Shown here piece after piece: positions 23,579 through 63,695 of a stretch of 64,000 nt of DNA; the stretch's first letter is position 1, and every line of letters starts with the position of its first letter. The notes beneath the pieces are model-generated. The model made no database searches and had not been told where the DNA came from. It saw nothing but the letters and a program-made list of their open reading frames with translations. The translations under genes and the position numbers were made by a program. The DNA is taken from positions 2,914,001 to 2,978,000 of the forward strand of contig OZ024759.1 of assembly GCA_964016885.1 (NCBI GenBank), written 5' to 3'. Source of the DNA: Eledone cirrhosa. Lineage: Eukaryota.

Positions 23579-23599
23579 GTCCTTCCTCTTTTAACCAAC

Positions 23600-29492: not shown

Positions 29493-29527
29493 ATATATAT
29501 ATATAGATATATATATTTATGTTGGTG

Positions 29528-29645
29528 AAGGCATGTGGCTGAGTGGTTAGAGAATTGGATTCACAATCATGAGGTTGTGAGTTCGATTCCTGGACCGGGC
29601 GATGCGTTATGTCCGTGATCAAGACACCTTATTTCACGTTGCTCC
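29528..29645 (+). mobile_element. tRNA-derived SINE, 5' part
   Basis: TGGCTGAGTGG A box and GAGTTCGATTCC B box. Confidence 0.75.
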
Positions 29646-30654: not shown

Positions 30655-30959
30655 TTTAATATTTTTTTTAAGGCAACGCTTGTAATAACTCTAGTTAAAC
30701 ATGATATATATTAATAATAAATTATCGTTGTAATGTAATTAGATTATATAATTGTTATTTTATAAATGATCTTATAAATATTATTGTACGACACGCAAAC
30801 TTAAAACATTCTGTTGTTAGTCATTGCGTGTCTAACAGATATATATATATATATATATATCTTTTGCTCTTTTACCTTTTCTAGCCATCTGATTGAGGCC
30901 ATGCTGGAGCACTGCCCTTGTTGCTACACATTCTATCTCCAGCCTGTGTTGGCTGGCCA

Positions 30960-32205: not shown

Positions 32206-32238
32206 ATAAGATCAAAAGATGGTTAAATGAGTTCCATG

Positions 32239-32309
32239 TATTTTATTATGCGCATTTCAAAAACAAATATCATCATGCAATAACATTTGTGTTTTCATCA
32301 GATAAAATA
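32239..32309 (-). ncRNA. Type I hammerhead, family A
   Basis: Minus strand reads tattttat-CTGATGA-stem II-GAAA-TGCGCA-TA-ataaaata. Confidence 0.8.
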
Positions 32310-32407
32310 GGAGGACATGATATGAAGGTTAAAAACACTTGTGGATAGTGCAGTTTTAAATCAACATATGAAAAGTAGTTTTAGATTGATGTGTGATATT
32401 GGGGAAA

Positions 32408-33635
32408 AAAAATCAACATACTGATTGCGGATTTGGTACGGGTGATGAGAAACGTGTCCCGCATGTGCAACCCCAAAGAACTAGAGAGACACATACAACA
32501 CTTCATCCACCGTATGCAGTTCTCGGGCTACAATCAGAGAGATAAAATCAGAGTGTATAGAGGAGCCAGAACCAAATGGGAAAAAATGGTAAATAATGAC
32601 ATAAATGGGACCTGCCCCTTGTATAGGAGCAAATTTTGGAATAGAATAGAAAGAACTAGGAACAAGGCTAATAGAATAAACTCATGGTATGATAGCAATA
32701 AATACCAGAGTGTAATGTTCATCGATACAACCCCTAGAGGTGAATTAGCTTACAAATTTAGAAGGGCCCTAGATAAACATAAACTCAATATTAAGATAGT
32801 AGAAAGACCAAGTACCTCCGTAAAAACACTTATTAGCAAGACCCTCATGTATAGATAAGAAATGTATAACCTGTAAAATAAGCCCCCATATTAACTGTAA
32901 AACTAGAAATGTAGTGTATAGCATAAGATGTACTGAAGGACAATGTAGAGACAAAAATATAGTGTACATAGGTGAGACAGCTCGTAGTGTAGGGGAACGG
33001 ATAAATGAACACTGGCGAGACCTTCAAGATAGTAAAAAATCATCTGTACTCTACCAACATGCTAAAATAGAACACAAAGGTAAATTAGAGAACATAGAAA
33101 TAAAAATAGAATCTACACACAGAAAAGACGCAATGTTTAGACAAATCACAGAGGCAATAAACATAAAAGAATTACAACCGAAATTAAATAGAAAATATGA
33201 GTGGAACAGCAACATCACAACTTACAATTAAGGATAAAATGAATACACACACACACATAGAACAAACAACCAACCAGCAACATGTAAATAAACAAATAAA
33301 TAAATGAACATAAACACACACAGACACCCGGATGTAGCGCATGCACAGACTGAGCACACAACACACACACACAGAAACAAAATGGCGTAGGACAGAACAA
33401 AGGAGAGGCACAAAAACAAAGAAAGGAATCCCCAGTCACTGAAGAGGTCACAGAGTGTGTGACGAAAGAACTATGACAATATATAAACAACTATCTGGTT
33501 GTGGAACCAACCAACCAACCAGAAATTTATAGATTTATAAATTTATTATGAATTTATTATAATAAATTGAAGTGAAAGCAACTGGTGTGTGTGTTTCTTA
33601 TTGGCAATATGACCCTCCCAAAGTATAACAATATA
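32408..33635 (+). mobile_element. 5'-truncated PLE (family B): RT C-terminus, GIY-YIG, and pLTR with hammerhead at 33435-33477
   Basis: VVYSIRC…YIGETARSVGERINEH…EAINI. HHR reads gtca-CTGAAGA-ggtcaca…tgtgac-GAAA-GAAC-TA-tgac. Same family as 45120-46820. Confidence 0.88.
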
Positions 33636-33773
33636 TATTTATATATATATATATTTAATGTATCAGGTGAGTTTTATTGTTGTACAATAAAGCAATGCAG
33701 ATATCGGATAAGATATGTTGATTTAAAACTGCACTATTCACAAGTATTTTTTAACCTTCATATCATGTCTTCC

Positions 33774-33844
33774 TATTTTATCTGATGAAAACACAAATGT
33801 TATTGCATAATGATATTTGTTTTTGAAATGCGCATAATAAAATA
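33774..33844 (+). ncRNA. Type I hammerhead, family A
   Basis: tattttat-CTGATGA-aaacacaaatgttattgcataatgatatttgttttt-GAAA-TGCGCA-TA-ataaaata. Confidence 0.8.
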
Positions 33845-33893
33845 CATGGAACTCTTTTAACCATCTTTTGATCTTATATATTATATATATATT

Positions 33894-35407: not shown

Positions 35408-36145
35408 AGAACAAAAGATGGTTAAAGGAGTTCCATGTATTTTATTATGCACATTTCAAAAACAAACATCATCATGCAATAATATTTGTGTTTTCATCAG
35501 ATAAAACAGGAGGACATGATATGAAGGCTAAAAAACACTTGTGGATAGTGCAGTTTTAAATCAACATATGAGAAGTAGTTTTAGATTGATGTGTGATATT
35601 GGGAAAAATATTTTATTTAGAGGGGGGGGGGATGAAAAAAAGAGGAGGAATTTATACATTATCTTCCAACGGTTTTCAACCTCTCTATGTAAAACAATAT
35701 ATCTTTCTCAGTTATAAAAACTATCTCTCTCTCTCTATCACCCATCTCTCCTCCTATCTCATCCTTCCTCATTATATTCCTCCCTCTCATCTGACCATCA
35801 CTCTCATCTCCTCCTCTTTTTTTCATCCCCCCCCCTCTAAATAAAATATTTTTCCCAATATCACACATCAATCTAAAACTACTTCTCATATGTTGATTTA
35901 AAACTGCACTATCCACAAATGTTTTTTAGCCTTCATATCATGTCCTCCTGTTTTATCTGATGAAAACACAAATATTATTGCATGATGATGTTTGTTTTTG
36001 AAATGCGCATAATAAAATACATGGAACTCCTTTAACCATCTTTTGTTCTTATATATTATGTATACTCCAGTCCTACAAACTGTAGAGTGCTTCTTATCCG
36101 ATATCTGCATTGCTTTATTGTACTACAATAAAACTCACCTCCTAC
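35405..36145. mobile_element. Non-coding foldback of family A pLTRs, with hammerheads at 35438-35508 (-) and 35949-36019 (+)
   Basis: Arms of about 245 bp (35405-35650 and 35808-36052) are near-perfect reverse complements. Confidence 0.85.
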
Positions 36146-36900: not shown

Positions 36901-37084
36901 GTATATATACAAATTCTCTTTCTCCACACCACCAAATCTAGCACACACTAGGACAAAAATACGCAAACACATATTAGCCCCACAACAAACCACTAGTACA
37001 ACCCAGAACGAAACCACATACACAATACAACACAACAACCCACATGCCAGAATACGAACAACCGACAACGTGCCACCAAATCTG

Positions 37085-37420
37085 TAACCCCGATCTGCAA
37101 TTGCAAAAAGCGGGCAGAATGCCCACTAAACGGTGAATGCCTCGTTAAAAACATTATTTACCGGGGCGATGTCACAGCTGGCACAAAAGACTACTCCTAC
37201 ATAGGTGGAACCTCGACTACGTTTAAGGAGTGCTGGTATAACCACAGAAGCTCCATTAAACATAGACTCAAACGATCCCAAACTTGATTGGCCGATTTGA
37301 TCTGGGACCTCAAAGACCTCGAATTCCACATCATATGGTCAGTTAAAAGACGCATGGCCCAACTCCCCAGCGACAGAAACTACTGCAGGTTATGCCGAGG
37401 CGGCTGAGATAATTAAATTG
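37085..37420 (+). mobile_element. Decayed PLE GIY-YIG fragment
   Basis: CNCKKRAECPLNGECLVKNIIYRGDV…YIGGTSTTFKECWYNHRSS. Confidence 0.75.
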
Positions 37421-40242: not shown

Positions 40243-43200
40243 CAGTGGTCGCCAACCTTTCTAAAACCGCGGAACCCTCTAAATATTTTGAATTCTTCAC
40301 GGAACCTATATAATACAAAACTTTCAAAAAAAAAAAATAAAGTATTTATTTATTTTAGTGTTTCATGCGTGTGTATGTAATCGAACACAATTAACTAGTG
40401 GCTTTTCTGCTGCTGCGCCTCATCAGTGAGTTTAGAAAATCGAGGTTCAACACTAGTTAATGCCAGTCTCATACACTCGTCAATTGCTGACAGTTTATTC
40501 CTCTTCTTTGTGCAGATTTCTACCAACTGTGAAAACCCTTTTTCGCACAAGTAGCTAGATGGGAATAAAGTCAAATATTTCAATGCAAGTTGGCTGATTT
40601 CATTAAACTACCCAATCAAGAATAAGTCGATCCATAGTTCTTTCTTTCTTCTTTCGAATATCACTTTCAGGTCTTCGTTTGAATTCAAATCCATCAACTG
40701 ATGTAAGCATTGTGCAGGTAGTAAATTTTTACAATTTCCAGCGTCATTTTCTGACACTAACTGCTCGATCTCGGTGAACGGGTTTTTTATCCATAAATTT
40801 CCGCTAACAATATCTTTTTCCATCAAGTCAAAATAATCTGAAAAACTTGTGGAAAGCACATTTAAATGAGAAAGAATAATCTTCTTTAGATTGCTGGAGT
40901 CAAAATCTTCTATCTTTTTAAGCTCTATTTCAAGGTTTGAAAGTAATGAGTAATTGTCCGATTCAATTCTTTTTATAAAGATGTTTAATTTTTATTGAAA
41001 ATATGTAATAAAATTGATTGAAGTAAAAATATCTGCATTGTTACCCTGAAGACACTTATTTAGTTTGTTCAGTTCACCAAAAATGTCTACTAAATAAGCG
41101 AGTTGCACATTCCATTCATTGGTTTCTAAGACACTTGCTCTTTCATCATTCTGTCTTTTTAGAAAAACTATTATTTCTTCTCTCAGTTCAAAATCTCTCT
41201 TCATAGCATCCACAAAAGACAGCCAACGCACATCATTGTTTAATAACAATCTATTATAATTACTTCCAGAAGATTCACAAATAGATTCGAACATTCTAGA
41301 ATTTTTTGCTCTTGCATGGATCAAATTGATAATTTTGACAATGTCTTTCAGCTGGTCATTTAATATTTGAGCATCTCTGTCTTTGAATTTTTTTGAACAC
41401 AAAACCTCTCGATGAATCATACAATGATTTGAAATACAATTTGGGGTCTGTTCTTTAATTTTTGCAATCAAACCAGAATGTTTACCAGTCATTGCAGCTG
41501 CTCCATCTGTTGTTATTGAAGTCAACTTGCTCCAAGATACACCATTTTTTAAAAAATACTCTTCAATTTTATTGAATATATCTTGACCTTTAGTTGTGAT
41601 GTCTAATACCAGACAAAACAAATACTCTTCTACTAATTCTTTTTTATCAAGGTCTACAAACCGTACATAGCAAATTAATTGAGCCTTGTTATTAATATCC
41701 GTAGTTTCGTCCACTTGCAGACCAAAACATGTGCTTTTCTTTAGTGCAGTTAGTATCTGATTTTCTATATCAGAAGAAATATCAATTATCCTTCTTTTTA
41801 CGGTATTTGCTGACAATGGTAACTGGCTTAACTTTTTCTTTGTCCTTAATACTGCAGCTTTCAAAAAGATTCTCTGTAGCAATTGTTATACTTGGCAGAA
41901 TTAACTGTTCTCCTAATGTAAATGGTTTCTTGTTTTTACCAATCAAATGTGAAATTTCAAAAGATGTTCTTGTTAAAGCTTTATTTCTATCTGACTTTTT
42001 ACAAAACAAGTCATACATATTAGCTTGTGATTTTTTATGTTGTTTTTCAGCGAAGTAAAGTATTCCAGTGACTTGTTTTTATCATTGGTGTGATTAGTAT
42101 CAAGGTGTCTTTTAAGTTTTGCAGGATTTAAACAGCTATTTGATAGAACTTTTGAACATAGCAAACACATGGGCTGATCTGGTGTATCTTTTTTAGTGTC
42201 AGCTTTTTGAAATCCATATCTAACATAATCATCACACCACTGTCTAACCTTACTGCAGTAGACATTATATCAATGTTATTTATCTACAGTTAACATTTTT
42301 AATATGACATTAATAAACAAGAGTAATTAAGTTTTTTTTATTACAAAAAGGACTTCCAGCACTTCCTGCATATACTACTTTAGGGTCGTATTAAATATTA
42401 TTGATAATGTAAATATATTTAAATATCCGCCATACTAAAAGGTGCAAAAAATGCAAATCAGCTGATAGTGTAGAAAATGTGACGATGGTTTTGGAAATTA
42501 ATTCAGATATCTTCTATCTATTTTGACTCAAAGTTAGATATAATATAAGAAGGCTTTAGGCTGCGTTAAACATATATTAGATTGGAACAAATAAAGTTTA
42601 GTCAAATGTTTGTGGACATATATATTTATTGTATAAAGTAATTTCTCAATTGTGAATGCAGATGTCATCAAATGAATACATAATTGTGTGGCAAAGTTTA
42701 TAGTATATGCATGGAATACAAAATTACCTTTGTTAGTAGTCGAAACTTTACAGGCGTTATATTTTCTGTGCAAAGTACAACAGAATGTAACGTGTTCTTA
42801 TTTAGAATTGTCTGTGGAACTGGATGCATGTTGAAAACGACTAGTAAGCGAGTTCACTCTGAGGAAACTTTAGGCGACTTTAAAGCTTTTGTGAGGACAG
42901 CAGATTAAAACGTGTTCTCTATTGAAAACATTTTACTGAACTTACGTTGTGAGAACAGCGAACTGACTCTGTCTCTCGGCTGAACGACCTCTCTGAACTG
43001 AAGTTTTCAGTTTAAAGTTATGCTGTCATCGACCAACATTTACTTGTTCGTGATTGGTCAATTTCTAAGTTCAATTAGTGTATTATCAGTAGTAGTCAAA
43101 TTCTCGGAATTCAGAAAACTATGTCTTTCCAAGGATTGATGTGAAATTGAAAGTATTCAATTTCCACGAATCTCAGAACAGTGTTTTTCTGCTAATTCAA

Positions 43201-43390: not shown

Positions 43391-43544
43391 GTAGGAGTCG
43401 TAGAGTAAGAAATGTTAATAGTATTTCTATTAAAAATGTTACTATATTTATGTTTAGGGGGAAAATTCTTCGTAATAAGGGAGAGAAAGATCTTAGCTAA
43501 TGGTGTGGCCACCTCCATATTATATGGTGGGTTATACTAACCCT

Positions 43545-44530
43545 GTAGTTAGTACTAACTGTAATTGTAGGAATCGGGTTGACTGCCCCCTATCCGGGAA
43601 ATGCCTCTCTAGTAACATTGTCTACAAATGTAAGGTTGAAACACCCACGTCCCGTAGGGCCTACATAGGGTTAACCGCCAATAGATTCAAGCAGCGTCTT
43701 TACATGCATACCCATTTTTTTCGTTACCCTTTAAAAAGGAATATGATGTCACTTTCAGCTTATATCTGGAGTCTAAAAGACAACCAGACCCAATATAAGT
43801 TACACTGGGAGATCCTAGCTAGGGCTAGATCGTATAACGGAAATAAAAGACCATGTGACCTCTGTGCCGCTGAGGCCCTGGAAATACTCTACGCCAAAGA
43901 CCACATCTTTTACAAAAAATCTGAGGCAATTTTGGCTTGTAAACATAAATTGCACAAAACTTTCCTGTATTACAGCCCCACATTATACCCTAACAGATAG
44001 TACGATCTATACGCGGATATTTTACGTCTGGATGTGGTAGCTAAGTATATGTTATGTTTATACCATTACTTATTTGCATAGGTATATATTACCCGTATGT
44101 TTTGTGCAGGTACGTATACTTTCTCGTACGTATATTTGATTGTATATGTTATGGCGTATATTTTATATATTCTGGTACATATGCTTTTGGTTATGTGTAT
44201 ACGTGAGTTTTGCGTCTGTGTGAGTATGCGGGTTCGTACGTATGTAGGGTGTGTGTATATGTGTACTTCGTGTTTTGGTTGACGTAGTCTCCGAACATAT
44301 GTGTATTTACATGTAGGTATGTGTTTGCGCTTGTTATATACGTATTTTTTTATTTTTTTATATACGTTTATTTAATTATTTGTATTCACGCACACATATA
44401 TATATGTACGTGTATTTGTATGCCTATGGCGAGTGTTTTCGCGTATGCTTGTGTATGTACGTATATGGATGCGTGTATGTATTTATTTAATTTCAATTAC
44501 CTCTGTATTTTATTTACTTTATTCTTAACT
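43545..44530 (+). mobile_element. PLE GIY-YIG domain and TG-rich 3' UTR
   Basis: CNCRNRVDCPLSGKCLSSNIVYKCKV…YIGLTANRFKQR…CDLCAAE…CKH. Confidence 0.85.
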
Positions 44531-45119: not shown

Positions 45120-46820
45120 TATATATATCGTTTCTGAATTTGTTTAGCAAGATTCTTTATTTGAAAACGTATGTTGAAACCGATATTGTTATACTTTGGG
45201 AGGGTCATGTTGCCAATAAGAAACACACGCATCAGTTGCTTTCACTCCAATTTATTATAGATTTATAAATTTACGGTTGGTTGGTTGGTTCCACAACCGG
45301 ATTGTCATTCATGTATTGTCAAAGATCTTTCGTCACACATTTTGTGACCTCTTCAGTGACTGGGGATTCTTTACTTTGTTTTGTGCCTCCTTTGTTCTGT
45401 CCTACGCCATCTTGTTTTTGTGTGTTTTGTGCTTGTTTTGCGCATGTTACATCCGTGTGTGTTTATATTCGTTTATTTACATGTTACTAGTTAGTTGTTT
45501 GTTCTATGTGTGTGTGTGTTTTCATTTTGTCCTTAATTATAAGTTGTGATGTTACTATTCCATTCATGTTTTCTATTTAATTTTGGTTGCAGTTCATTTA
45601 TGTTTATTGCCTCTGTGATTTGTCTAAACATTGCGTCTTTTCTGTGTATAGATTCTATTTTTATTTCTGTGTTTTCTAATTTGCCCTTATGTTCTATTTT
45701 AGCATGTTGGTAGAATAATGATGAGTCTTTTCTATCTTGGAGTTCTCGCCAGTGTTCATTTAATTGTTCTCCTATGCTACGAGCTGTCTCACCTATGTAC
45801 ATTATATTCTTATTTTTACATTGTCCCTCAGTACATCTTATGCTATATACTACGTTTCTAGTTTTACAGTCAATGTGGGGGCTTAGCTTACAGATTATGC
45901 ATTTCCTATCTATACAGGGAGGTCTTTGAAAAGGGTATGTATTACTAATTAGTGTTTTTATGGAGGTACCTGGTCTTTCCACTATCTTAATATTTAGTTT
46001 AAGTTTATCTAGGGCCCTTCTAAATGTGTAAGCTAGTTCACCTTTAGGGGTTGTATTGATGAACATTACACTCTGGTATTTATTGCTATCATACCATGAG
46101 TTTATTTTATTAACCTTATTCCTAGTTCTTTCTATTCTATTCCAAACTTTGCTCCTATACAAGGGGCAGGTCCCATTTGTATCATTATTTGCCATTTTTT
46201 CCCATTTGGTTCTGGCTCCTCTATATACTCTGATTTTGTCTCTCTGATTGTAACCAGAGAACTGCATACGGTGGATGAAGTGCTGTATGTGTCTCTCTAA
46301 TTATTTGGGGTTGCACATGCGGGACACGTTTCTCATCACCCGTACTTAATCCGCAATCAGTATGTTGATTTTTGTGTGATCCGAAACAGCTGGGTTTCGG
46401 TGGATCAGGTATTTGGAAGACATGGGTTTGACATAATGGGAATGGAGGATATGTTTTTTGTTATTAATGGTTTCTAACCTGAGCTCTGTGTCTAGTACAG
46501 GTAATCGATGGTTGGGGTGTTTGCTTGGGTAGTCTATAGTAACTTTGATACTCTGGTGGATGGAGTTAGCTATTTGCCGGATGCTTTCTATGGTGTTTTT
46601 CTTCAATTCATAACTGTTCTCAAGTGGAGGTGTTTTTACTACGATGTTTATATCATCAACGTAGCGGGAGTACATAATCAGGGTTAAGAGATTGTTGTCT
46701 TCTAATTGCTCTTTAAGTTTTTTGTCCCACCATACCATAAATAGGTTAGCTATGTCACCTGCAATGCTAACGCCAATGGCTGCTCCTTCCATTTGGGCAT
46801 ATGTTTTCCCATTAAATGCT
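45120..46820 (-). mobile_element. PLE family B: RT core, GIY-YIG, and pLTR with hammerhead at 45318-45360
   Basis: QMEGAAIG, YSRYVDD, YIGETARS. Minus-strand HHR reads gtca-CTGAAGA-ggtcaca…tgtgac-GAAA-GATC-TT-tgac. Confidence 0.9.
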
Positions 46821-46899
46821 ACGAGCTGTCTCACCTATGTTCTCTCTCACCCTGTTCTGTTGTCTAAGGAAAACAATAATATCTCGACAACTACACTTC

Positions 46900-48662
46900 A
46901 TAAAACAATGTGCCTCGTCCCGAGTTCACACCAACACCATCAACACCGATGTAAGAAGATTACAACTTACCAAAAAAAACAAGCAGATAAGCTAAAACAT
47001 AAAAAAGATTTACAGAGAATTTAGTCATCAAGAAAAACATAGGCGTAAAATAATACAAGAAATAACTAAGATCACCACACCAAGAGAAAAATTAGAATAC
47101 ATAAACATTATACATAAAGAAGAAAAATACATCATCCAAGAATGATTCATTTCTACAATTCGTTATAGACGCATATATTCCCCTATATCACCCATACTCC
47201 TAAACAAAGACTTGATATTTACCAAAAATAGATCAGACTTAACTATTGATGACATCAATATTATCACGCACACTAGACAAACACTACTTGAATTTCAGAA
47301 GGAGGACCAGAAATACATGTAATAATCTCTTCGACATAACTATGGGCTCTAGTGATTCTGCCCAAATTACCGATCTTGTGGGCCTCTTTCTTCTATTTAA
47401 CATTAATTCATCTTTTCCCCACCTTAAAGGTGGTTTATATCGTGACGACTGTCTTCTTCTATCCACTAATCTTAGCCTATCAGAAATTGAAAGAAATAAA
47501 AAACTTATTAGAACTTTCCTCAAAGACTATTATAATCTCACTATTACATTTGAAAACACCAGTAAAATAGTCAATTTCCTAGATATAACTATGGACATAT
47601 CTACGGGTATCTACCAACCTTACCATAAACCTAACCAAAACTTGCATTACATACACTCACAATCAAATCACCCTAGATCTATCCTTAAAAACCTAGCATA
47701 TAATATCTCACTCAGAATTTCTAACCTTTCATCAAATCAAGATGTATTCGATAAAAACGCGCCCTTTTATAATGAAGCTTTAGCTAGAAGCGACCACAAG
47801 AACAAATTGCGCCAATAATATTTCAAACATACAACCTCATACTACCAACAAACACCAAATGAAATACCCACACCTAAACGCCACTCATACTACACCTAAA
47901 AACACCAACCCAAAACTTAATTTCTCTACCTCTCCTCACATAAAAAATAATGCCTTTCAAAAAACCATTCACCCTAATACTCTAACATATGTCAACAACA
48001 TAAATAACAAAATTCCTAGTAATCAGACTAAAACACCTAAATCAAGTAATCTAATTAAACCTATATATAATAAAACCACTAATACTAACTCTCTCAGTAA
48101 ACCTCCCGATACATCATATAAATATAAGAAACAATGTCGAAACCGTAATAGACGTGTTACTTGGTATAATAATCCATTTAATCTACAGATTAAAGACCAT
48201 GTCCCTAAAAAATTATTTGCTATCATAGAGAAAAACTTCCCACCAAACCATAAATACCATCAAATTTTAAATAGATTTACTGTCAAATTTTCCTACTCCA
48301 CTACCAAGAATATACAACAGAATATAAGCGCTTACAACCCATATAAGTGTAAAAAAAAACAAATACACCACCAACACATCAAACCAACCATAATAATACT
48401 AAAATAAACCAAAACAAACCACTTCCACACCAATTTTGACTAATAATCTCCAACACAAACAGAACTCTACTAGCTCCACATCCCCTAAACTATCACCCAC
48501 CAATAACCTATCTAACAATACTAATATAATTACAACCTATTCTAAACTATACATTAATGAAAATAGTAACACTAATACCACTATAGATAATACAAACAAC
48601 TCTCCTGATACGATATTTACGAATGGTTGTAACTGTAGAATCAAAAGAAATTGCTCATTACA
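46900..48662 (+). mobile_element. Decayed PLE RT region, ending at the start of the GIY-YIG domain
   Basis: FDITMGSSDSAQITDLVGL, GGLYRDD, VNFLDIT, YIHSQSNHP, RRVTWYN, CNCRIKRNC. Confidence 0.85.
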
Positions 48663-49481
48663 CGCATACAAAGTACACGCATACAAAGACACATATCGGC
48701 GTTCGGGCATATCTGCACATATATACACAAACACTCTCATACACATACATAGGTACACACACGCACACACACGCATAGCCTTATGGATAGGCATCAAGGA
48801 CAGACACACTTCCAAAGACATAACCACACATACACACACATACACACACCTGTACATATGTCTACACACAAGTACATGTACCCGCTTATAAACACATAGA
48901 CAAACCCAGTCTTATGTGGGTATACATACGCACCCCCACTGACAGATACACACACCATATATATATATATGTGTGTGTACATAGACACACACACATGCAG
49001 ACACACATGCATACACATATACATATATGTGTATACGCACATATATATACACACATACATGTATATACACACATACACATACATACTTATACTCACATAT
49101 GTCTATATGTGTACACATACACACACACACAAATATACACATATACACACACATACGCACACACATATACCTACGCATATCCTTATATACATATATATAT
49201 ATATATACACACATACATACAGTATACACATAGACATAAATACATACACACACACATACACACATATATATATAAAACTCTACATGCATACACATACCCA
49301 CACATATATATATACACACATATATATACACACATATATATGTATATATACATATACGCACACGGACACCCACATGCACATATGCATATGTGCTTACACA
49401 CACATGCTTACACATATACATATATAAACAAAACCGTAAAATAAATATACAATATACAATAAAATAACAATATAGTATACA

Positions 49482-49585: not shown

Positions 49586-50211
49586 TGCACACATATATAT
49601 ATATGTACGTATGGATTCACCGAACATTTATTATAATGCTCGGTGTGTGGAAACAAACATCCCGAATTAAGCCGTACAGTGTCTAGCTACCATCGTTGCT
49701 CATTTGTTCAACACTGACAAAGGAACGCTGTACTAGTTTCAAGCTTATTAGCTATCGTCAGCAACGTATACTTTCCTGCCAGATGATTGAACGTCTGAAA
49801 GTATATACTTTCCTTATGCATATTAACGGCTGAGCAGCCCAATTTGCATATCGAGTGAGTTAATCGGCCGGGGTACCGAAAACGATAAACGGAAAAAAAT
49901 GAAACGTTTATCTTTTCGGTACCCCGGCCGATTAACTCACTCGATATGCAAATTGGGCTGCTCAGCCGTTAATATGCATAAGGAAAGTATATACTTTCAG
50001 ACGTTCAATCATCTGGCAGGAAGATATACGTTGCTGACGATAGCTAATAAGCTTGAAACTAGTACAGCGTTGCTTTGTCAGTGTTGAACAAATGAGCAAC
50101 GATGGTTGCTAGACACTGTACGGCTTAATTCGGGATGTTTGTTTACAAACACACCGAGCATTATAATAAATGTTCGATGAATCCATACGTAGATATATAT
50201 ATATGTGTGCA
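49586..50211. mobile_element. Palindromic element of about 625 bp, with hammerheads at 49725-49767 (-) and 50028-50070 (+)
   Basis: Arms 49586-49891 and 49905-50211 with a 13-nt spacer. HHR reads acgttg-CTGACGA-tagctaataagctt-GAAA-CTAG-TA-cagcgt. Confidence 0.88.
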
Positions 50212-50224: not shown

Positions 50225-53200
50225 ATAGATACCCGTGTATATTTATCTGATGGACACACGTGTATAACTTGCTGAGTAAGTTCTGTTTAAATTTCTATAG
50301 AAATTCTTGTCTGTTAACTTTAATTTTTGTACCATTTTGTAGAGGGACTGCCAGGTCAAACTTTGATCTGGTCAGTCTCTCAAAATATTCTACGCCTTTA
50401 GGCGAAATAGTTAAACAAAAAAAAGTTTTTTCTTGTTGAAAAGTTAATATTTTTTAAAATGGCTGAAGCTTCTTCACCAAAATTCGAAGGAGGAAAGGGG
50501 AAGATAAACTTACAGCTTCCCCTGCCACTGTCACAGTAGCAGAGGTCAAGAAGAAAGGTCAGCCAGAGGAAGAATTTTCTCCACCTGTTAACCGACAACT
50601 TGACGTTGCCATGGCAACAACCCAAAGAACCAACGGCACCAGCAACAGCAACAACAACAATGCGACGGACGAAAACAACACCAATAACAATAACAACAAC
50701 AACAAGACCAATAACCGTGACAACAACAACAATGATAACAACAACACCACCAACGACAGCAACAACACAAACCAAAAAAATTCTCCTTCGCCGAGACGAC
50801 AAGGAAAACCCTCGACTATCTGCCAGCAGATATAACCAAAGCGAAGGAGCTACTGGCAGATGCCAAAAAATATATAATGTACGGGGAAAATGGTTCATTC
50901 ACAATCCATTCCCCCCCCCCGGAACTAAAAAGCCAGAGACTCCTAAACACTGTCATGTTTAGGACAATCTCGAATAAAAGTAAAACACCAGCTCAACCAT
51001 CACAGAGTGAGATAGAGCTGGTTTTGAAAGACGTCATGAAGGACATCACCTTCACTCAGAAGGATAGACTCTACGGGAGTCTATCCATTCTCATGAAGGA
51101 CAGGGACACAGCAGTGAAACTGTCCATCAAACCAATCACATCCACCGCATACACCTTCTACCCTACGTACATGGGTAGAAGAACACAAAAAATAAAAATC
51201 CACACCATCCTGTCGATTATGGACATATGGTGGGTTTTGACAGGTTTCCTGGACCTGGAGGATGACATGCTGGTGTCCATGGGAAAAGCATCGGGTGACG
51301 CGTTCAGTGGAACGAGCCTCGAACTTGTAGTTCAAATGAGGCTCGAAAGGATCGCCCAGATCCCTGAACGCGTCATACTGGATGATCTAACCTTCATCAA
51401 CATTACCGTTGAGGGTAGGCTGCCCTCTGCAGAACCAGAGGTCACCTGAGGGCTGTCTGTCCCCAACTTAATAAGAAAACCCCAATCCTGCCTACACCAC
51501 CAACAACTGCACAACCAACACAATCACCACAACTACCACTACAAAAACAACCACCACAGCTCAAACCAAAACAAAACAATGTCCAACCCATCCCCTCCAC
51601 TCAAAAAACAAAAACAATTTCCAAAACACCCGCACCACAAACACAACCCGAAAATATACCCCTCCCCTCCAACGCGGAAGATGAGCCTAGTTCGTCGTCA
51701 GACGAGGAGGAGCACTTCCACACAATCAAAAGAAAAAAAAGAAAACACACCTCAGACACACAAATGAAAACAACCCCTCCCCAAAACATAACACTGACAC
51801 CAACACAAAAGAGCTCACAACAACAGCAAACAAAAAACACCACACAAAAACAAAAACATGCATACACATACATAAACACAAGAAACAAAAAACTGTTAAA
51901 CATTGTTTACAACAACAATCTAATAAAAACACAAGGGCCTAACTTCACCCAGGCAGGGGATTTCCCCCACCTCAAAATGATTAAGGCCCCACAGGACACC
52001 TATAAAACTTTAAAAAACAATTTTAAAGAGGACGTGGGTCCCCCCTGCGTCTGGCCCATTAACCGCGTCCTCCTAAAAAAACTACCACACCTCCTCCCCA
52101 AACACCCACACAACTCCAAACTCCCCAACCACACAACACACTGATGCCCCTACACTTCCACAAACCACCACCCCACCCAACAACCCATTCCCCACCCTAA
52201 TGGAAATTGTGCAGCCCGATACCCTGGACGCAGAGAGGTAAGTGCCTTTTCTCTTCACCACCAACATGGCTATGCTAAGAGTAGGCTGTTTAAATGCGCG
52301 TGGCCTGGGCTCAACTTGGAAGCAAGCAATGCTTCTAAATGACCTCAGGTCACAACGTATAGATGTGATGGTTATTTGCGAGGCCCGGATCAGCAACGTG
52401 CGACAGCTGGCCCCCACCTTTGATGACTTTGAGATGCACGCATCTCTCTGTCAGCCCGGAGGTGGGGGTGGAGTTGTCGTTCTGCTGCAAAAACATCTGG
52501 GTCTCGCAACACAGATGGTACATTTGGACCCGGAGGGTCGACTAGTGGTTCTGGACCTTGGCAGTGGTAAAGGCGGGGCGTTTAGGTTGGTAGCCGTCTA
52601 CGGCCCTTTCGGGTCAATGCGGCCGGACTTCTTCCATCGTCTGGAGACTTTTCTAGGGACGTCCCGCTTCTTGCTGGGGGACTGGAATGGTATCCTAGAT
52701 GCACGATGGGACTACGTAGGGGCCTGTCCCGATAGAGAGGGGTGTAATAGCCTCAAAGGGTTAATCGGTTGATTTGACCTGGCCGATAGATATCGACTAG
52801 ATTTTCCGACTGCGCCAACCTGGACTTGGGCAAATCGTAGCGGATCATCTAGGTCGTACCTAGATAGGTTCTTAGTTAGAATTAAGGATAAGGACTTTTT
52901 AAGTTGTCCAAAAATGCGCATGGTTGGCTATTCAGACCACAAGTTAGTGACCTGCATGATCAACCTTGACAGAACTCATAGACAGGGACCCGGTTACTGG
53001 AAGCTCAACTTGTCCTTGCCGGCAGGTAAGGCTTACAGGGACCGGATTAGCACTTTAGTTAAGGAGCGGTTGACGGGCGCCATCGTCAACAGCAGGTGGT
53101 GGGATCTCTCAAAAGAGAGATTAGAGTAGTCTCTATAGAATTTAGTAAGGAGTTAGCCTCAAATAGAAATAGGAAGGAAAGGGAGTTGGTAGATAGTGTA

Positions 53201-55948
53201 GAAGAGGCAATTAGAAGCGGCGACGTGGCCAGAGTGCTAGCGTCGAGAACGGCCCTGGGCCAGTTCTTCGACGCGAAACACAAAGGCTGCATCGTCCGAA
53301 GCAAAATACGTGCTCTGGGAAACGAGGGGACCAAAGCTGTTAGCTGGGCCCGCGTGACAGAAGCCAAAAGAGGGAGCAGATCCACTATCCGGTCTTTGCG
53401 AGACCAGGATGGACGGGTGATCCTTGAACCTAAGCAGATGTGCGAGGCTTTTCAAAAGCACTTTGCCGGATTGTTCGGAAGGGGCGGGGGGCCGGTTGGG
53501 GATGTGGACTTCGGTCCATACCTCGACGGCCTGCCGCGTCTCTCGGACAGGGAGGGGAAGTCCTGCGAGGAGCCGATTTCAGCCGCTGAGATAGAGGACG
53601 TGCTTAGCCAATGCGGCAAACGCAAATTCCCGGGTCTCGATGGTTTTCCATACGAACTATATCTAGCTATGCCGGACTTGTTCCCCGATCTCCTCGAGGC
53701 GGTCTACTGCAACTGGCAACAGAACGGGAGAATTCCCTGTGCTGTGACCAAGGGCGTAGTCACGCTAGTGAGGAAGGACGAGAACAAGGGGGACGATATA
53801 AATAATTTCAGGCCCATAACTCTGCTAAATACAGAGTTACAGGTGCTAGCAAAGAGGTTGGCGCTTGTCGTGGGCAACCTGGTGGGAGATGCGCAGACAT
53901 GTGCTATCCCGTCCAGGTCCATCCACGACAACCTCCACCTCATGCGATACATCATAGAGAGGGTTGGGAACGAACCCGGCTTTGGTGGGGCCCTGATCAA
54001 CTTGAATCAATCTAAGGCATTCGATAGGGTCGACCATGGTTACCTGGATGTGGTGCTAGCGGCGGCAGGCTTCGGACCCGTTTTCAGGGGCTGGATCAAT
54101 GCCATGCACAGCAGCCGCATCTGCTCTATGGTCAAGGTGAACGGCTACCTCTCGGAGCCGTTCGAAATCGCGCGGTCCATCCGACAGGGGTGCCCTCTCT
54201 CCTCCCTTCTGTATGTAATGACTCTAGAGCCACTGCTGCGGAAGTTGGAGTTGTTACAGGGCATCCCGTTGGAACCGGGATTGCGGAAAGCGGTGTCAGC
54301 CTACGCCGATGACGTAACAGTAATGGTGTCGACGGCCTCGGAAATCGGGGCGATCGGCACCTTACTGGAGGAGTACGAAAGGTTTACAGGGGCTAAGCTG
54401 AACCGGGACAAGTCGATCGGTCTGCAACTCGGCACGTGGAGGGGCAGATCGATGCCCTCCGATGGCGTCGTCGGGCGCTGGACGGAGGGCCCGGTGAAGT
54501 TGCTCGGGGTCTGGTTCGGACCAGACCTCCAGATGGAGAAGAACTGGGGTGAGGTAACGAACAGGGTGTTTGCACTGACCTAGAAGTGGGCCGAGTGCAA
54601 ACTGTCCCTGAAAGGTCGGGCGGAGGTGGCGAACACTTATATAGCGTCCGTCATCTACTACCGCCTGACCGTGGTGCCTTGCCCAAGGGAAACGCTCGCC
54701 AAAATGGAGCGCGCACTCTTCCAATTCCTTTGGAAGAAGCGGGCTCCTATGGTGAGGAGATCCATCTGCTGTCAACACCCTTCGAAAGGAGGGCTGGGGA
54801 TGCCGTGGCTAATGATACGTAAACACGCATTAAGGCTACGGCACCTTCAGGTATTCCTCTCCGGTCAACCGGTGTGGGCCCCGTTTGTGAGGCGAGCCTT
54901 TCCCAGACTCGTCTCACTCACCGAGCTGCAATCCTGGGTCAAGCAAAGACCGAGAAAACTGGGCGCCTGGCACACCGAGTGTGCCCAGGCGCTCACGGCT
55001 CTCTGGCAGGCGGACCCGGCTGTCAGTGGAGAATCCACCTCGTCATTCTATAGAGGGCTGGTGGTTAGCAGGTTCGACGACGCCCTCGGAGAAGCCCTAG
55101 GCATGGAGGAAGACGAACTGGCCAACCTGTTCGGTAGGACATTCAGCCCGGGACCCATGGATAACTTCCAGAGGTCCCTGGCCTGGCAATGCTACAGAAG
55201 GGCTCTGCCCGTTCTAGAAAGGCTCTACAGACACGGGCGCCCGGGTAGGGACCCATCGAAAAAGATCTGTCCCAGATGCGTGTGCGACGAGGAAACCGTT
55301 GCACACGCATTGGTACACTGCTCGGGCATTGCCGATCTGTGGGGCTATGTCGAACAACTGCTGTCAAGGGTGGGACCGATCCGGTTGACCACCGAGTCTA
55401 TTGTAACGATCAAGCCGCCTCCCCTCTTCAAAAACGAAGGAGAGGCGGTGTTTCTGTGCGTAATAGCCATGGCGAAAGGGGTTGTATGGTGGACGCGTCT
55501 GAAAAGACTGAGGTCAGACACCTTTCTCTCTGGCCAACAACTGGTCCGTTTCTTCCGATATCATTTCGGAAGAAGGATCAGGATGGAGAGAGAGGTGCTG
55601 CACCCCAGCCGTTTTTATGAAAGATGGGTGAAAGTGGCGAGAATGGCCCGTGTGAATGGGCCTTCACTCTACATCAGACTATAAGTGAGGAAGATGAAAG
55701 ACCAAGGGAGCACCCCTTCTCTGTGCTCCCGAGTAAAAGGGTTGCACACTTTTTTTCGGGGGTGTGTGCGACCCCCCAAGGCGCCTCCTCTCTATTGAGG
55801 ACTTTGTTATAAATTTTATTTTTTGTTATATTTTATTTTATTTTTATATATTGTTATTGCCTCCTCCTTATTGAGGACGCCTTGTTTTGTAAACTCCCCC
55901 CATTGTACTTGTCCCACTTTTGATGCCCTGGTGGCAAATAAAAGAAAC
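50225..55948 (+). mobile_element. Near full-length L1/Tx1-clade LINE, copy 2 (inactivated)
   Basis: ORF1 remnants at about 50459-52241. ORF2 at 52266-55684 with APE, RT (AYADD) and CPRC…HALVHC. The 3' end matches copy 1; the 5' boundary is approximate. Confidence 0.92.
52266..55684 (+). pseudogene. LINE ORF2 (APE-RT-zinc finger), with stops and frameshifts
   Basis: ORF pieces 52242-52772, 52914-53129, 53096-54583 and 54626-55684. Confidence 0.9.
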
Positions 55949-57438: not shown

Positions 57439-57500
57439 GCAATAAACTGAGTCCAGATGCATCACTGATTTTTTTGGTTTTTATACTATATATATATATA

Positions 57501-59057
57501 CAGTGCCCCGCAAAAGTTTACAACACATTAGGAAAAATGCGGTTTTAGGTATTTTTAATAAAGTTAGGGTAATGAAAATTTAACTACTGATAGAACATAT
57601 AATGAGGCATTTAATGATACAATCATATTTTTTTTTAAATAACAAGGAAATAACTCATGAAGAAAAATCAATATTTTTATAACGCAAAAGTTTACAACAC
57701 ATTTTCTATTTATCGCTTTTTTTCAAGAAAATTCTTAAATTTTCAGATTTAAAATTCAGTAGAATGTTCTAGATTAGGTTTAAGGTAACTTCTAAGGACT
57801 ATTCAAAACATTACGTCATTATTTGTCTGACAACCATCCTGTAAACATTGACAACCATCCTGTAAACATTGACAATATGGGGAAAAATAAACTGATTGAT
57901 CAAGACCTCCGTAAAAGCATTGTAGACCTTCATACAAATGGTGTTGGTTATAGAAAGATATCTTGTCAGTTAAATGTGCCATTGAGTTCAGTTGGTACTA
58001 TAATTCGTCACTGGAAATCTCATCATTCCATCTGTCCTCTAATTAGTTCTGGTTGTCCTAGAAAGATAACGGAACGTGCAGCTCGGTTATTGACGAGAAA
58101 GGTTGGCAACGAACTCCGGTGTACTCTTAAAAATCTTCAGGATGACCTAGAAGAAAGTGGAGTAAAAGTGAGCACAGATACAATTAGTCGTTCACTTCGT
58201 CGATATAATATCTTCTCGAGATCTCCAAGGAAAACACCACTTCTTACGAGGAAACACTTCTTCGTTGATTAAACTTTGCAAATGATCTCATCAAACCTGC
58301 GTCATTTTGGGAAGGTGTACTTTGGTCGGACGAAACAAAAAATTGAACTTTTTGGTCGAAATGCTGTGGCAAAAGTCTGGAGAAAGTAAAGTACTGAATA
58401 TTCGCCGAAGAATACTATTCCAACTGTAAAATTTGGAGGTGGATCAATCATGGTCTGGGGTTGCTTTAGCGCCACAGGTGTAGGAAATATTGAAATAATA
58501 GAAGGAAGAATGGGTGGCACTTATTATAGAGGTATTTTGCAAAGGAATTTACATCAAAGTGCACATTCTCTCAGCTTAAAGCCAGGTTGGTTTTTTCAAC
58601 AAGATAACGATCCAAAGCATACTGCAAAGCTAACACAATCTTGGTTAAGTATGAATGGAATAAATGTTCTAAAATGGCCAAGTCAGTCTCCAGATCTTAA
58701 CCCGATCGAAAATTTGTGGAGAGAACTGAAACTCAGACTTCAAAAAAGGAAACCCCAAAATATCCCTGAACTAAAGAAAATGTGTTGTGAAGAATGGAAA
58801 AATATTAGCCAAGAAACATGCAAGAAGTTTGTAGGAGGCAACTCCAAACGCCTACAGGCTATAATTAGCAACAAAGGTTACGCTACGAAATATTAAGAGA
58901 TGATTTAATAAATGTGTTGTAAACTTTTGCGTTATAAAAATATAGATTTTTCTTAATGAGTTATTTCCTTGTTATTTTTTTAAAAATATGATTGTATCAT
59001 TAAATGCCTCATTATATGTTCTATCAGTAGTTACATTTTCATTACCCTAACTTTATT
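57501..59057 (+). mobile_element. Tc1-family transposon with long IR-DR-type TIRs; outer right end lost
   Basis: Starts TA|cagtg. Direct repeat gcaaaagtttacaacacatt at 57510 and 57684. 58911-59057 is the reverse complement of the inner left TIR. Confidence 0.9.
57877..58896 (+). pseudogene. Tc1 DD34E transposase, frameshifted
   Basis: WSDE, MVWGCF, QQDNDPKH…WPSQSPDLNPIENLW. 34 residues lie between D and E. Confidence 0.92.
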
Positions 59058-60817
59058 CATAATCAAAATCTATATTTTATTATACATATTTCAAAGGTAC
59101 AATGTTGTTTAAGTACGTTTTTATCAGACAAAATGTATGATTTGATATGTGACATACCACTATGGTCTTGATTATTCAATTCCAGTATTGGCTGTGATTT
59201 ATTTCACCAAATCTCAACGTGTTTATACCACAAATAATATGATAAACTTAGAGAAGAAAAGGGCATAGAGGGAGATGCAAAGAAGAGGAAAGGGCAAAAA
59301 TAAATAAATAAATGAATAAATAAATAAATGAATAAATGGATGAATGAATACAAGAAAAAAAATATAAAAGAAAAGAGGAATAAAAACAAAAGAGAGGGAA
59401 GATGTGGGGAGAGTAAAGAGAAAACGAAAGGCAATAAAGAAAAACGAAGAAAAAGAAAATGAAACTATGAAATAGAGGGCAGAATAAAAAAACCTGTTGT
59501 ATTCAAATGCAAGATAAAATAAGAAATCAAAAATCTATTCACATATATCAATGAATATCGCTTGTATTGGATTATGCTTTAGCTAATTATACTTTTATAT
59601 TATATCCAGATTATTAGGTATAGATTACTTTCTATAGCAATCAAATATTTAAGTTAATTACAAATTTATATAATTTAATTTAGCTCATTATAGAATATTA
59701 TAATTTTTAATTTTAAGGTAAGATATTCTATTAATATTTTACTACAACTTTAAAAGAATTAATCTTTAAAGCGTATTTAAATAATTATTAAATATGTATT
59801 AAAATATAATACCATGCATATATCCCCATCAATACATATAATATATTTTGTTCATTTATTATCCAAATTAATTTAGAAATTCTCTTTATGAAAGCTTTGT
59901 TATTCTTTAATTTTCATTTATTTCTTAGAATCCAACTGTGGTTATATTTGCACTCTATAATTTTATTTCATTTAATCAATGCTTATATTTACTTCTATAC
60001 TTAATTATTCTGATATATAGTTTCCTTTTAATGATAGTCTTAAACTTCATATCTCACGTCCAGCGATATTTTAAAAGCCTTAAATTATCTATTGTATATA
60101 TCGTAATTGACGCCTAATTAAATATTGAATTATACTAATCAAAGCATAGGATAAAAAGACTCTTAATGAAATTATTCCAATACATATAAATATCAATAAA
60201 TTAGGCAAAATTTATATCAATTAGGCAAAATTTATATATATTTAAATTATTAATTGTCCTTATTTTTTTTTAACTGGTACATTGCCTGGAAAGTTTTACA
60301 ATGTTATGGTGACAACTACTAAATAATTCATTTTTTTTTGTTGATTAAATTGTCATAGTTTGTGATTATCTGTAGAATCTCTTCATTGCAAAGATTGCAA
60401 ATTTCTGAGATTGTTAAGTTCTGGTAGGAAATAGCAAACTTTAATTTCCTCCAAGAGATGGAGTATTTAATATTATTGTCCTTTAAAGACCATACTAATT
60501 GCGAAAATGAAGTTGAGAATTTCTTATCTGGTCTATTGAAAGTATGTCTATGATTATACCAACGTTCCTTACATTTAGATGAAGTGGGACCTATGCAGTT
60601 ATATATTATTATTTGCCTTAATGGTACATTTATATTCTAGATTTTTGTCAAGGCAATTATTTTGTAAAGGACATTCAGACCTCTTTCTACAATTACATTT
60701 CTTCTCAGTGTTATTTACAGACGTTATACTATTCACATTATTATTAAAAGGCGTTCTACTATTATTCGTGTTTAAACTATTATTATTGTTATTCCTATTA
60801 ACTAATATATTATTATT

Positions 60818-61550
60818 ATGAATGTATATATAGTGTATTTTGCAATACACTGTATGCTTAAGTAAAAGCATTTTGAAGACTTTACGCTATTGTTTTAAAG
60901 TAGTGACCATGAAACTTCTTTTTTCAACAAACAAAGGGAGATAAGCTGATAGATCTCTGTTTCATCCTGTTGGTATTCCTCAGAGCTTAGCACTCCCCTT
61001 GTTTGTTGAAAATTAGGAATGTTGGATTCTTATAGAATTCCAGGAAGTGATTATACAGAGCGGTTGCAATACACTGTATGCTTAATTAAAAGCACTTTGA
61101 AGACCTTACGCTATTGTTTTAAAGTAGTGACTATGTCACTTTAATTAAGCATACAGTGTATATATAGTGCAAAATACACTATATATACATTCATATATAT
61201 ATATATATCGCTATTTCAGAGCACCAATTCTAATTTTCAATTTTTGCTGGACCGGCAACCGCTCTGTATAATCAGTCCCTGATTATTACTGGAATTCTAT
61301 AAGAATCCAACATTCATAATTTTCAACAAACAAGGGGGGTGCTAAGCTCTGAGGAATACCAACAGTATGAAACAGAGATCTGTCAGCTTATCTCCCTTTG
61401 TTTGTTGAAAAAAGAAGTAAGTGACATAGTCACTACTTTAAAACAATAGCGTAAGGTCTTCAAAGTGCTTTTAATTAAGCATACAGTGTATTGCAAAATA
61501 CACTATATATACATTCATATATATATCGCTATTTCAGAGCACCAATTCTA
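60818..61550 (+). mobile_element. Retrozyme-like non-coding element (~330-nt unit with terminal redundancy plus an inverted partial copy) nested in an (ATT)n tract of the PLE
   Basis: ttaattaagcatacagtgta recurs at 61141 and 61471. 60818-61140 is antisense to the same unit. HHRs lie in both arms. Confidence 0.75.
61343..61390 (+). ncRNA. Canonical type I hammerhead, predicted GUC cleavage after 61384; antisense copy at 60942-60989
   Basis: taagct-CTGAGGA-atac(caaca)gtat-GAAA-CAGAGATCTG-TC-agctta. Stem I is extended by 61320-61338 pairing with 61392-61411. Confidence 0.88.
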
Positions 61551-61598
<48 letters not shown>

Positions 61599-63039
61599 GC
61601 TAATTATAGGTTGGTTCAATTTAAGATTTTTATTATTTACTTTTGTTATATTTTGAGCAATATCCATAGTTGTTGAATAAGATAATTTAACTGTGTGTCT
61701 ATTGAAGGTAGAGTAATATTTATGTGATCTTGGGAAGCATTTATCCAAAGCTTTAAAAAGTAAATGTGCTGCAGGTGTTTTAGTAGCGAAAGATGCTAGC
61801 GGAACATACCAAATTATAGATCTAGTTCTTATTTTTTTCTTCGATTTATTCATCCAGTTGTTGTTTTTATATTTTATTATGATTATTATGATTATAATTA
61901 ATTTTATTTTGATGGATTTCTGTATTTTTATCTATATACTCAATATTATTGTTATATCCAGCTTTATGTAACGCTTCATTATAATATATAGCCTTACTAT
62001 TATAGCCTGGATATTCTTTGTTGTACACTGTTGACTATTGCGTTCTTAACACTTTTAGGATGATTAGAATAAAAACTAACATAATTTAAGTTCTCATTGA
62101 CTTTATGGAAAGGATAATAAAGGCCTGAGTTCAGATTTAGAGTCACATCTAAAAAATTGACTATTTTATTATTTTCTATTTCTAATTTCAGGTCATAATT
62201 TAAAAGAAATTCTATAATTGATTTCTTTACACTATTTAATTAACTATTGTTATGTTTTTCTACAATAAATAGTATGCCGTCCCTATAATCTCCAGCAATT
62301 TTCTATTTATCATGTTAAGGATAAAGATGCCCACAAGATCTGTAACTTGCGCCGAATCTGACGAACCCATAGGAATGACAAAATTCTTCGTCTATCTGCC
62401 CTAGTGCAAAGATCATTATTAAAATCAATCAAGGTTCGCCTTGCTGTTAATATAATATTTATCTCCTCACTAGATAGGTTTGTGTGTTTATATGCATATG
62501 ATAGCACCTTATTTAATAGATTAGGAGTTATCGAGGAATAATAACTGGCTATATCCATTTGAATGAACTTATAATTATTTTTATATTTAATATTTTTGAA
62601 CCAATCTATAACTTCACTTGTGCATTTCTATAGATTTAGCTGTGATTTCAACTTAATTGTTGATAAAATCCTATCTATTATATTCTTACTAATTATTCCA
62701 AGATCATTTATTTGTTTATTTCTTGCTTTTTCCTCTTCTTTTCATCCCCTTATATATTTCTACCTTGCTCTATGTCCTCTTCTTCTCTAAGTTTATCATA
62801 TTATTTGTGGTATAAAAACGTTGAGATTTGGTGAAATAAATCACTGCCAATACTGGAATTGAATAATCAAAACCATAGCGGTATGTCACATATCAAATCA
62901 TATATATATTTTGTCTGATGAAAACGTACTTAAACACCATTGCACCTTTGAAATATGTATAATAAAATATATATTTTGATTATGAGAATAATTTTCATTT
63001 ATTAACATTTGGAATAATATATATATATATATACATATA

Positions 63040-63095
<56 letters not shown>

Positions 63096-63096
<1 letters not shown>

Positions 63097-63594
63097 AGGA
63101 GGTGAATTTTATTGTAGTACAATAAAGCAATGCAGATATCGGATAAGTAGCACTCTACAGTTTGTAGGACTGGAGTATAAATAATATAAGATCAAAAGAT
63201 GGTTAAAAGAGTTCCATGTATTTTATTATGCGCATTTCAAAAACAAATGTCATCATGAGATGACATTGGCGTTTTCGTCAGGTAAAATAGGGAGACATGA
63301 TATGAAGGTTAAAAAGCACTTGCAGTTATAAATCAACATATATGTTGATTTAAAACTGCACTATTCAGAAGTGCTTTTTAACCTTCATATCATGTCTCCC
63401 TATTTTATCTGACGAAAACGCCAATGTCATCTCATGATGACATTTGTTTTTGAAATGCGCATAATAAAATACATGGAACTCTTTTAACCATCTTTTGATC
63501 TTATATTATTTATACTCCAGTCCTACAAACTGTAGAGTGCTACTTATCCGATATCTGCATTGCTTTATTGTACTACAATAAAATTCACCTCCTA
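63096..63594. mobile_element. Spacerless palindrome of family A pLTRs, with hammerheads at 63219-63289 (-) and 63401-63471 (+)
   Basis: taggaggtgaatttt…aaaattcacctccta, with centre aacatatatgtt near 63340. CTGACGA cores. Confidence 0.88.
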
Positions 63595-63635
63595 CACACA
63601 CACACACACACACACACATACACACACACACACAC

Positions 63636-63695
<60 letters not shown>

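Follow-up and report, generated by a model that had tools for sequence, protein, structure and literature searches.

Metazoan non-LTR retrozymes are described, in the available parts of PMC7229834 and bioRxiv 10.64898/2026.07.22.740005, as tandem arrays of two or more hammerhead units from which circular RNA is produced. In the same parts, the case for their mobilisation by Penelope-like elements (PLEs) is built on ribozymes held in common, on co-occurrence and on phylogeny and makes no use of insertion footprints. A footprint consisting of a tail plus an inversion was not found for retrozymes in the titles and abstracts of the searched, largely open-access literature. PLE insertions, according to the available part of PMC8557442, are characterized by a partial tandem, an adjacent inverted and truncated copy and a tail of 30–40 bp, which is often one-sided. 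A PLE protein studied in vitro cuts ATT on both strands and extends both of them, starts reverse transcription at two internal positions, the spacing of which corresponds to the tail, and accepts unprocessed RNA (PMC11167929).

The unit found at positions 60818–61550 of the window (the whole 64-kb stretch of DNA analysed) resembles a non-LTR retrozyme as portrayed in the available parts of PMC7229834 and PMC7761336, and behaves like a PLE-dependent non-autonomous element. As far as these parts go, it shares with the retrozymes a length of 150–450 nt, the lack of coding capacity, a low GC content (under 45–50%), a canonical type I hammerhead (6-bp helix I, 4-bp helix II), strong self-pairing, a high copy number and the co-occurrence with PLEs; for retrozymes, too, solo monomer copies have been described. 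In contrast to the retrozymes, the locus comprises 1.25 units with one intact ribozyme instead of a tandem with two hammerheads; its hammerhead has an A10.1-U11.1 pair, and its outer stem I extends over 19 bp. By the two-ribozyme criterion given in the available part of bioRxiv 10.64898/2026.07.22.740005, it is not an active retrozyme and would be a solo derivative. The element is retrozyme-like and at most a candidate member of the class.

Likenesses to the endonuclease PLEs (Penelope/Poseidon, Neptune, Hydra and Naiad; available part of PMC8557442) are the partial tandem, the inverted 5'-truncated copy and a tail of 30–40 nt at one end. A microsatellite or ATT target and 3' ends that lie close to a stem-loop, on the downstream side of an uncut hammerhead, are common to the locus, these PLEs and PAc (PMC8557442 and PMC11167929, as far as available). 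Unlike the endonuclease PLEs, the unit has no ORF and lacks the RT and GIY-YIG ORF of its own that marks an autonomous PLE; its ribozyme is canonical and not minimal, and its arms stem from different templates. The unit ends 132–169 nt past the cut site, whereas the first start of PAc is at approximately 85–92 nt (PMC11167929). Non-coding PLE dependants with pLTRs and head-to-tail copies are also represented by non-autonomous Chlamys PLEs such as MRC1, which, going by the available part of PMC8557442, differ in being algal, in having no canonical hammerhead and in having a known autonomous partner that carries the same 3' sequence.

Layout of the locus and its predicted hammerhead ribozyme

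The locus is made up of three parts. Copy A (61140–61553, plus strand) comprises 1.25 non-coding units, i.e. one unit (61141–61470) and a repeat of its first 95 nt. Upstream of it, piece C (61064–61141, minus strand) is an inverted stretch of 78 nt, identical to 61419–61496 in 78 of 78 positions. Copy B (60817–61066, minus strand) is inverted, 5'-truncated and derived from another template, and its hammerhead is damaged (core at 60983, site at 60948). The terminal direct repeat of copy A (61141–61235 versus 61471–61553) shows 0 substitutions and two 6-nt indels in 83 aligned columns, with a start-to-start distance of 330. One of the indels is a difference in (TA)n length, while the other, a 6-nt insert in the 5' repeat, perfects a locus-specific palindrome (61156–61189, plus strand), which adjoins the inversion joint and was likely generated by local fold-back copying. 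Twelve nucleotides of the 330-nt period are present in the 5' repeat only, and in the public sequencing run X1 the 3' repeat version reached a depth of 545,000 compared to 3,500 for the 5' version. Since the version found at high depth elsewhere is that of the 3' repeat, the usual period is about 318 nt and the value of 330 is special to this locus. The period of 330 with about 80 nt of terminal redundancy proposed in the sequence-only reading was thus recovered as a direct repeat, but it is not the period typical of the family.

Piece C is joined to copy A via a microhomology of 2–3 nt and to copy B via one of 4 nt. About 90 nt of the unit are omitted at the joint between C and B, which makes the inverted part a composite that does not run colinear with a circle. 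Of the inverted, circularly permuted copy suggested before, the inverted orientation holds, but the copy consists of two pieces from two templates; its internal direct repeat (60842 and 61066) is present as well and corresponds to the overlap of C and B. Compared to 61257–61519, copy B differs by 12 substitutions in 249 columns and by two indels, one of 10 and one of 4 nt, a divergence of about 5%. Piece C has the allele of copy A at 61465 (61095 in C), which is rare among the aligned contigs (637 of 219,695 depth). Rare alleles were counted at 6 of 249 positions in B and 3 of 413 in A (p 0.09, among 40 of the 310 variants).

The unit is 318–330 nt long with a GC content of 33–34%. One period folded as a circle reached −86 kcal/mol (z −7.6 against 60 shuffles, 64% paired, 34% GC), and the z value of the circular fold ranged from −7.6 to −10. 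Its description as non-coding was borne out: the longest stop-free frame across the ribozyme has 48 aa and gave no Pfam match, and no ORF remnant was found within 60818–61550. A search of the whole window with nhmmer yielded no further relative of the unit except TA-rich noise, and exact-pattern scans of metagenome contigs, viral contigs and prokaryote genomes gave no match.

Copy A holds a canonical type I hammerhead with an extended stem I (61320–61411, plus strand), which is predicted to be self-cleaving. Stem I has 6 bp (61343–61348 and 61385–61390) and is followed by the core CUGAGGA (61349–61355), a 4-bp stem II with a 5-nt loop, GAAA, a palindromic stem III and the GUC site; the cut is predicted after C61384, the position that had been named from the sequence. 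The helix sizes match the canonical metazoan type I motif as given in the available part of PMC4209133, while the 10.1-11.1 pair, usually a conserved G-C in this motif according to the same part, is A-U. Beyond a bulge, stem I continues for about 19 bp, as claimed earlier (fold z −4.9; equalled by 0 of 200 shuffles). The claim of a 5-bp stem III was not upheld, as this stem folds into 4 bp capped by a palindromic tetraloop and a fifth pair would leave a loop of 2 nt. A hammerhead motif scan of the 64 kb yielded 9 matches, compared to 0.075 per block-shuffled window, and a motif as strong as that of copy A occurred in 0 of 40 shuffles. Among the nine, the hammerhead of copy A, which had been called the best-formed of the window, is the only one that combines canonical helices of 6 and 4 bp with an intact GUC.

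The active fold is predicted to lie 0.7 kcal/mol above the minimum in copy A, where it makes up about 3% of the ensemble, and 6.8 kcal/mol in copy B. The A10.1-U11.1 pair and this low predicted share of the active fold may result in weak cleavage. Each strand of the locus carries one hammerhead motif, intact in A (plus) and damaged in B (minus). With a single intact hammerhead, the locus would give one cut and would be unable to release a monomer or a circle itself. No hammerhead family was among the 95 Rfam matches in the window and the 14 local ones; the Rfam miRNA matches were discarded as TA-repeat noise.

Several other hammerhead elements are located in the window. A second family (32209–32403, 33713–33874, 35408–36145 and 63097–63593; cores at 32301 and 35500 on the minus strand and at 33782, 35957 and 63409 on the plus strand) has a long loop II and a palindromic stem III, forms inverted pairs in (TA)n, and its copies stop approximately 38 or 130 nt past the cut site. 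At 63017–63673, the inverted arms are 305 nt long and 96% identical and, unlike in the other pairs, include the flanking (TA)n(GT)n microsatellites in a symmetric manner; either a fold-back duplication or an assembly effect would account for them. A third family (49586–50211) consists of two inverted arms (298 matches, 7 substitutions), each of which bears a minimal hammerhead (50034, plus; 49761, minus). Further motifs were found at 45356 and 34050, both on the minus strand.

Relatives of the unit in public sequencing runs

Parts of the unit are present in 8 of 13 runs, from 5 studies and with 5 organism labels, none of them on record as RNA. Four public runs (X1, X4, X5 and X11) were aligned to 60650–61750. 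The summed contig depth in X1, which may come from the sample behind the window, was 288,000–291,000 at 61242–61315 and 344,000–545,000 at 61464–61537; such depth is not equal to copy number. It amounted to 19,000–31,000 over the ribozyme, where the dip is caused by diverged modules, to 840–4,600 in the host flanks and to 7–25 for single-locus contigs, among them those with the alleles specific for copy B. From these values, we infer a copy number of the order of 10^4 in X1.

The unit belongs to a very abundant family, in which the ribozyme core, the long stem I and the 3' hairpin are kept via compensatory changes. In the core, C3-G8 is replaced by U3-A8 in 13 contigs of X1, one of X4 and one of X5, a natural covariation of PLE ribozymes known from the available part of PMC4209133. 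The arms of the outer stem I show an exchange of A-U for G-C (22 and 49 X1 contigs and 375 X11 reads), with the two arms on separate records. The hairpin at the 3' end has a relative with two compensatory pair changes, in which the GCAA loop is replaced by UUCG (2537 X11 reads and one X5 contig). Both loops belong to stable RNA tetraloop classes.

In X4 record 9, which bears another organism label, 61466–61536 runs straight into 61219–61287, so that the end of one unit meets the start of a unit. The contig records are too short for two ribozymes, and two junctions on one molecule are beyond what contigs can prove. Joints from antisense to sense at other positions were found in 7 of the best 15 of 31 joints, each in a single X1 contig and several with short fillers; given sides of 22–36 nt at 85% likeness and their proneness to repeats, they are supportive only. 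Six loose ends were seen in X1 among 24 of 477, of which five are unit variants and one lies in the host; the X1 share running into unlike sequence was 0. X5 record 21 represents an inverted locus, the long end of which lies at 61549 and is followed by (TA)n; this end independently matches that of copy A.

Some candidate boundaries were rejected. The X11 pile-ups at 61084, 61239, 61296, 61473 and 61476 were not accepted as element ends, as 5 of the best 6 lie on AATT in a restriction-based library; the read ends of X11 are restriction sites and thus uninformative on boundaries. An X11 joint between 60881 and 61320 was not counted, as the stem I palindrome may have led to mis-mapping. The depth step at 61239 was dismissed because 44 X1 contigs go on there in a unit variant. 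In addition, 555 X11 reads pass from 61526 into a long (TA)n and could represent either copies with the short end inserted in (TA)n or internal repeats of greater length.

Host Penelope-like element, target and 3' ends

The locus is embedded in a decayed, 5'-truncated, Hydra-like PLE on the minus strand (59053–63016), in which RT pieces (62627–62003), a linker, a CxCX5C motif at about 60697 and a GIY-YIG part (60636–60331) were identified, the latter as a high-scoring lead. The host PLE has inverted terminal repeats (59057–59281 and 62757–62985) and a hammerhead of its own at 62915, and its right arm is 25–31 nt longer than the left; similar inverted, asymmetric ends are found in the host PLE and the other hammerhead elements of the window. 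P0001, a single RT-linker-GIY-YIG ORF and the sole match among 111 candidates, aligns with residues 320–398 to 61841–61605 and with residues 407–435 to 60697–60611. Since this alignment brackets 60818–61550, the insertion lies in the linker of the PLE. Deleting 60818–61550 restores the host reading frame, in agreement with the earlier placement in an (ATT)n linker between RT and GIY-YIG. Neither the host pieces nor P0001, which was rescanned, were recognized by Pfam, and no homologue was found in a search with the host endonuclease piece. Judged by motifs (C-terminal GIY-YIG, CxCX5C linker, CxxC and CxH around E and N), the host PLE would fit the Hydra clade as outlined in the available part of PMC8557442. 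Downstream of copy A, the target (ATT)16 (61551–61598, plus strand) encodes on the minus strand an Asn run of the host linker. A preference of insertions for this (AAT)n run, which codes for Asn, would best explain the nesting.

Other repeats are scattered over the window, and the repeat content suggests an invertebrate animal. Pieces of PLEs of the host group were found by tblastn of P0001 at 43497–44000, 47243–48891, 946–1391 and 37039–37395, while 45533–46834 and 32397–33231, which are 89% alike, represent a different PLE family with GIY-YIG. A Tc1/mariner-like transposon (57499–59063, DDE_3 match) has its right inverted repeat cut short by the host PLE end. A 31-nt satellite (3764–14702, 353 copies) is followed by a GTG-rich tract up to 15518. 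Two 3.6-kb copies (23537–27191 and 52200–55834, 83% alike) are taken by us to be LINE-like, with endonuclease- and RT-like ORFs; 16413–18996 and 40608–41885, on the minus strand, presumably comprise pieces of a Helitron-like helicase and a transposase of the hAT type. Head-to-head tRNA-like short repeats at 29374–29645 (weak Rfam tRNA match) are probably SINEs.

Both 3' ends of the inserted copies face outward into the microsatellite, that of B at the equivalent of 61516–61519 and that of A at 61550–61553, i.e. 31–37 nt apart. The resulting tail (61519–61553, plus strand) is present at the right end only and, if B and A represent one event, corresponds in length to the published PLE tail of 30–40 nt. 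The fold places a hairpin of 8 bp with a GCAA loop (61485–61504, plus strand) immediately 5' of the short end, and this hairpin is a candidate recognition or start element for the RT.

Insertion mechanism and alternative explanations

The partial tandem, the adjoining inverted 5'-truncated copy, the one-sided tail and the ATT/TA target together form a layout that equals the published PLE insertion signature, which makes target-primed reverse transcription by a PLE likely. The element, abundant, non-coding, approximately 320 nt long and equipped with a canonical type I hammerhead, was probably inserted in trans by the RT-endonuclease of an autonomous PLE. Mobilisation of the hammerhead unit by PLEs, as put forward in the sequence-only reading, is thus made likely by the footprint. 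Insertion would begin with a cut of both strands in (ATT)n by the endonuclease, after which the target ends would prime reverse transcription at two internal starts, 31–37 nt apart and just downstream of the conserved hairpin; priming at each target end is suggested by the two 3' ends facing outward. At the right end, 413 nt would be copied from RNA A with the long start, and at the left end 250 nt from a different RNA, B, with the short start. The two cDNAs would then be joined via microhomologies of 2–4 nt and a 78-nt fill. While the sequence of this fill is observed, its copying from A is part of the proposed mechanism and is indicated by the rare allele of A at 61465, which C carries.

Copies A and B each extend across an intact ribozyme junction, and the length of A is more than one unit; the template must therefore have been longer than a cut monomer. 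Multimeric RNA transcribed from tandem source loci would be cleaved by the ribozyme into monomers, the ends of which are predicted to be held together by the 25-bp stem I. The earlier conclusion that permuted copies longer than a unit imply a circular RNA template found no support in the form proposed: a PLE protein uses unprocessed RNA in vitro and the pattern is an ordinary one for PLEs, so a linear uncut tandem transcript fits equally well, and the inverted part is a composite of two templates. For copy A, we lean towards such an uncut tandem transcript as the template; a re-ligated monomer circle is a less likely source and a template jump an improbable one. It is doubtful that the complete scheme of a circle of about 318 nt, recognition of a tetraloop hairpin (GNRA or UUCG), two fixed starts, two RNAs per break and a dimeric PLE enzyme applies.

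The element might be a true non-LTR retrozyme, the tandem source loci of which give rise to a ligated circle of about 318 nt, with copy A as a product of rolling reverse transcription. The canonical hammerhead, the stable helix III, the size, the GC content of 34% and the fold z of −7.6 resemble the retrozymes of coral, mussel and axolotl in the available part of PMC7229834, and X4 record 9 shows the end of the unit joined to its start. The absence of substitutions between the two repeats points in the same direction, but 0 substitutions in 83 nt would have a probability of about 0.2 for independent units, so that the identity favours a circle weakly; moreover, the repeats differ by two 6-nt indels, one intact hammerhead is present here, and linear tandem RNA leads to a similar layout in ordinary PLEs. 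This origin is accordingly regarded as possible, though not as the favoured one. Somewhat less credit is given to two successive insertions by the same machinery, in which an older copy B would have received copy A together with the 78-nt inversion C at its 5' end. A succession of this kind would accommodate the 5% divergence of B from A, its larger number of rare alleles, its presumably dead ribozyme and the identity of C with A. However, the junction of B with C retains no target sequence, the reading frame of the target is kept on rejoining, and the excess of rare alleles is not significant (p 0.09). The end offset of 31–37 nt from B to A also equals the published tail length, whereas two insertions require the tail to be counted from the end of C in the hairpin loop, which gives 54–60 nt.

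Two further explanations dispense with an independent mobile unit or with RNA altogether. If the unit were only the pLTR of a coding PLE, the locus would be a truncated remnant that underwent a local duplication. Most PLE insertions are truncated at the 5' end, retrozymes are similar to pLTRs (bioRxiv 10.64898/2026.07.22.740005, available part), and a low-copy exit into an ORF is possible, as the survey of loose ends covers 24 of 477. Against such an origin, improbable in our view, stand the missing ORF remnant in 60818–61550, the lack of resemblance between the unit and the ends of coding PLEs in the window and the canonical hammerhead, which contrasts with the long-loop or minimal ones at the other PLE ends of the window. 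In addition, no well-supported exit into unlike sequence was seen in X1 among these loose ends, and the unit end meets the start in two organisms. A repeat formed at the DNA level (satellite or fold-back element) or an assembly artefact, with the ribozyme fold being incidental, could be suspected in this AT-rich, hairpin-rich region, where inverted repeats are prone to mis-assembly. It is rendered highly improbable by the covariation in core, stem and tetraloop, which acts at the RNA level, by the B alleles at single-locus depth in X1, by the 12 sites that distinguish A from B and by the motif being found in 0 of 40 shuffles.

To the questions of which enzyme mobilises animal retrozymes and whether or not a circle serves as template, the locus adds a PLE footprint, consisting of inversion, one-sided tail and microsatellite target, on a non-coding unit with a canonical hammerhead. 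The unit may be one more family of an already described class, with a circle as a putative form. The covarying hairpin beside the start sites is offered as a testable candidate recognition element, and with thousands of copies at hand, mapping of the 3' ends would reveal the start sites used in vivo. Should the complete scheme with a circle as template prove right, the partnership of PLEs and retrozymes would be open to direct test and a natural minimal PLE template would be defined.
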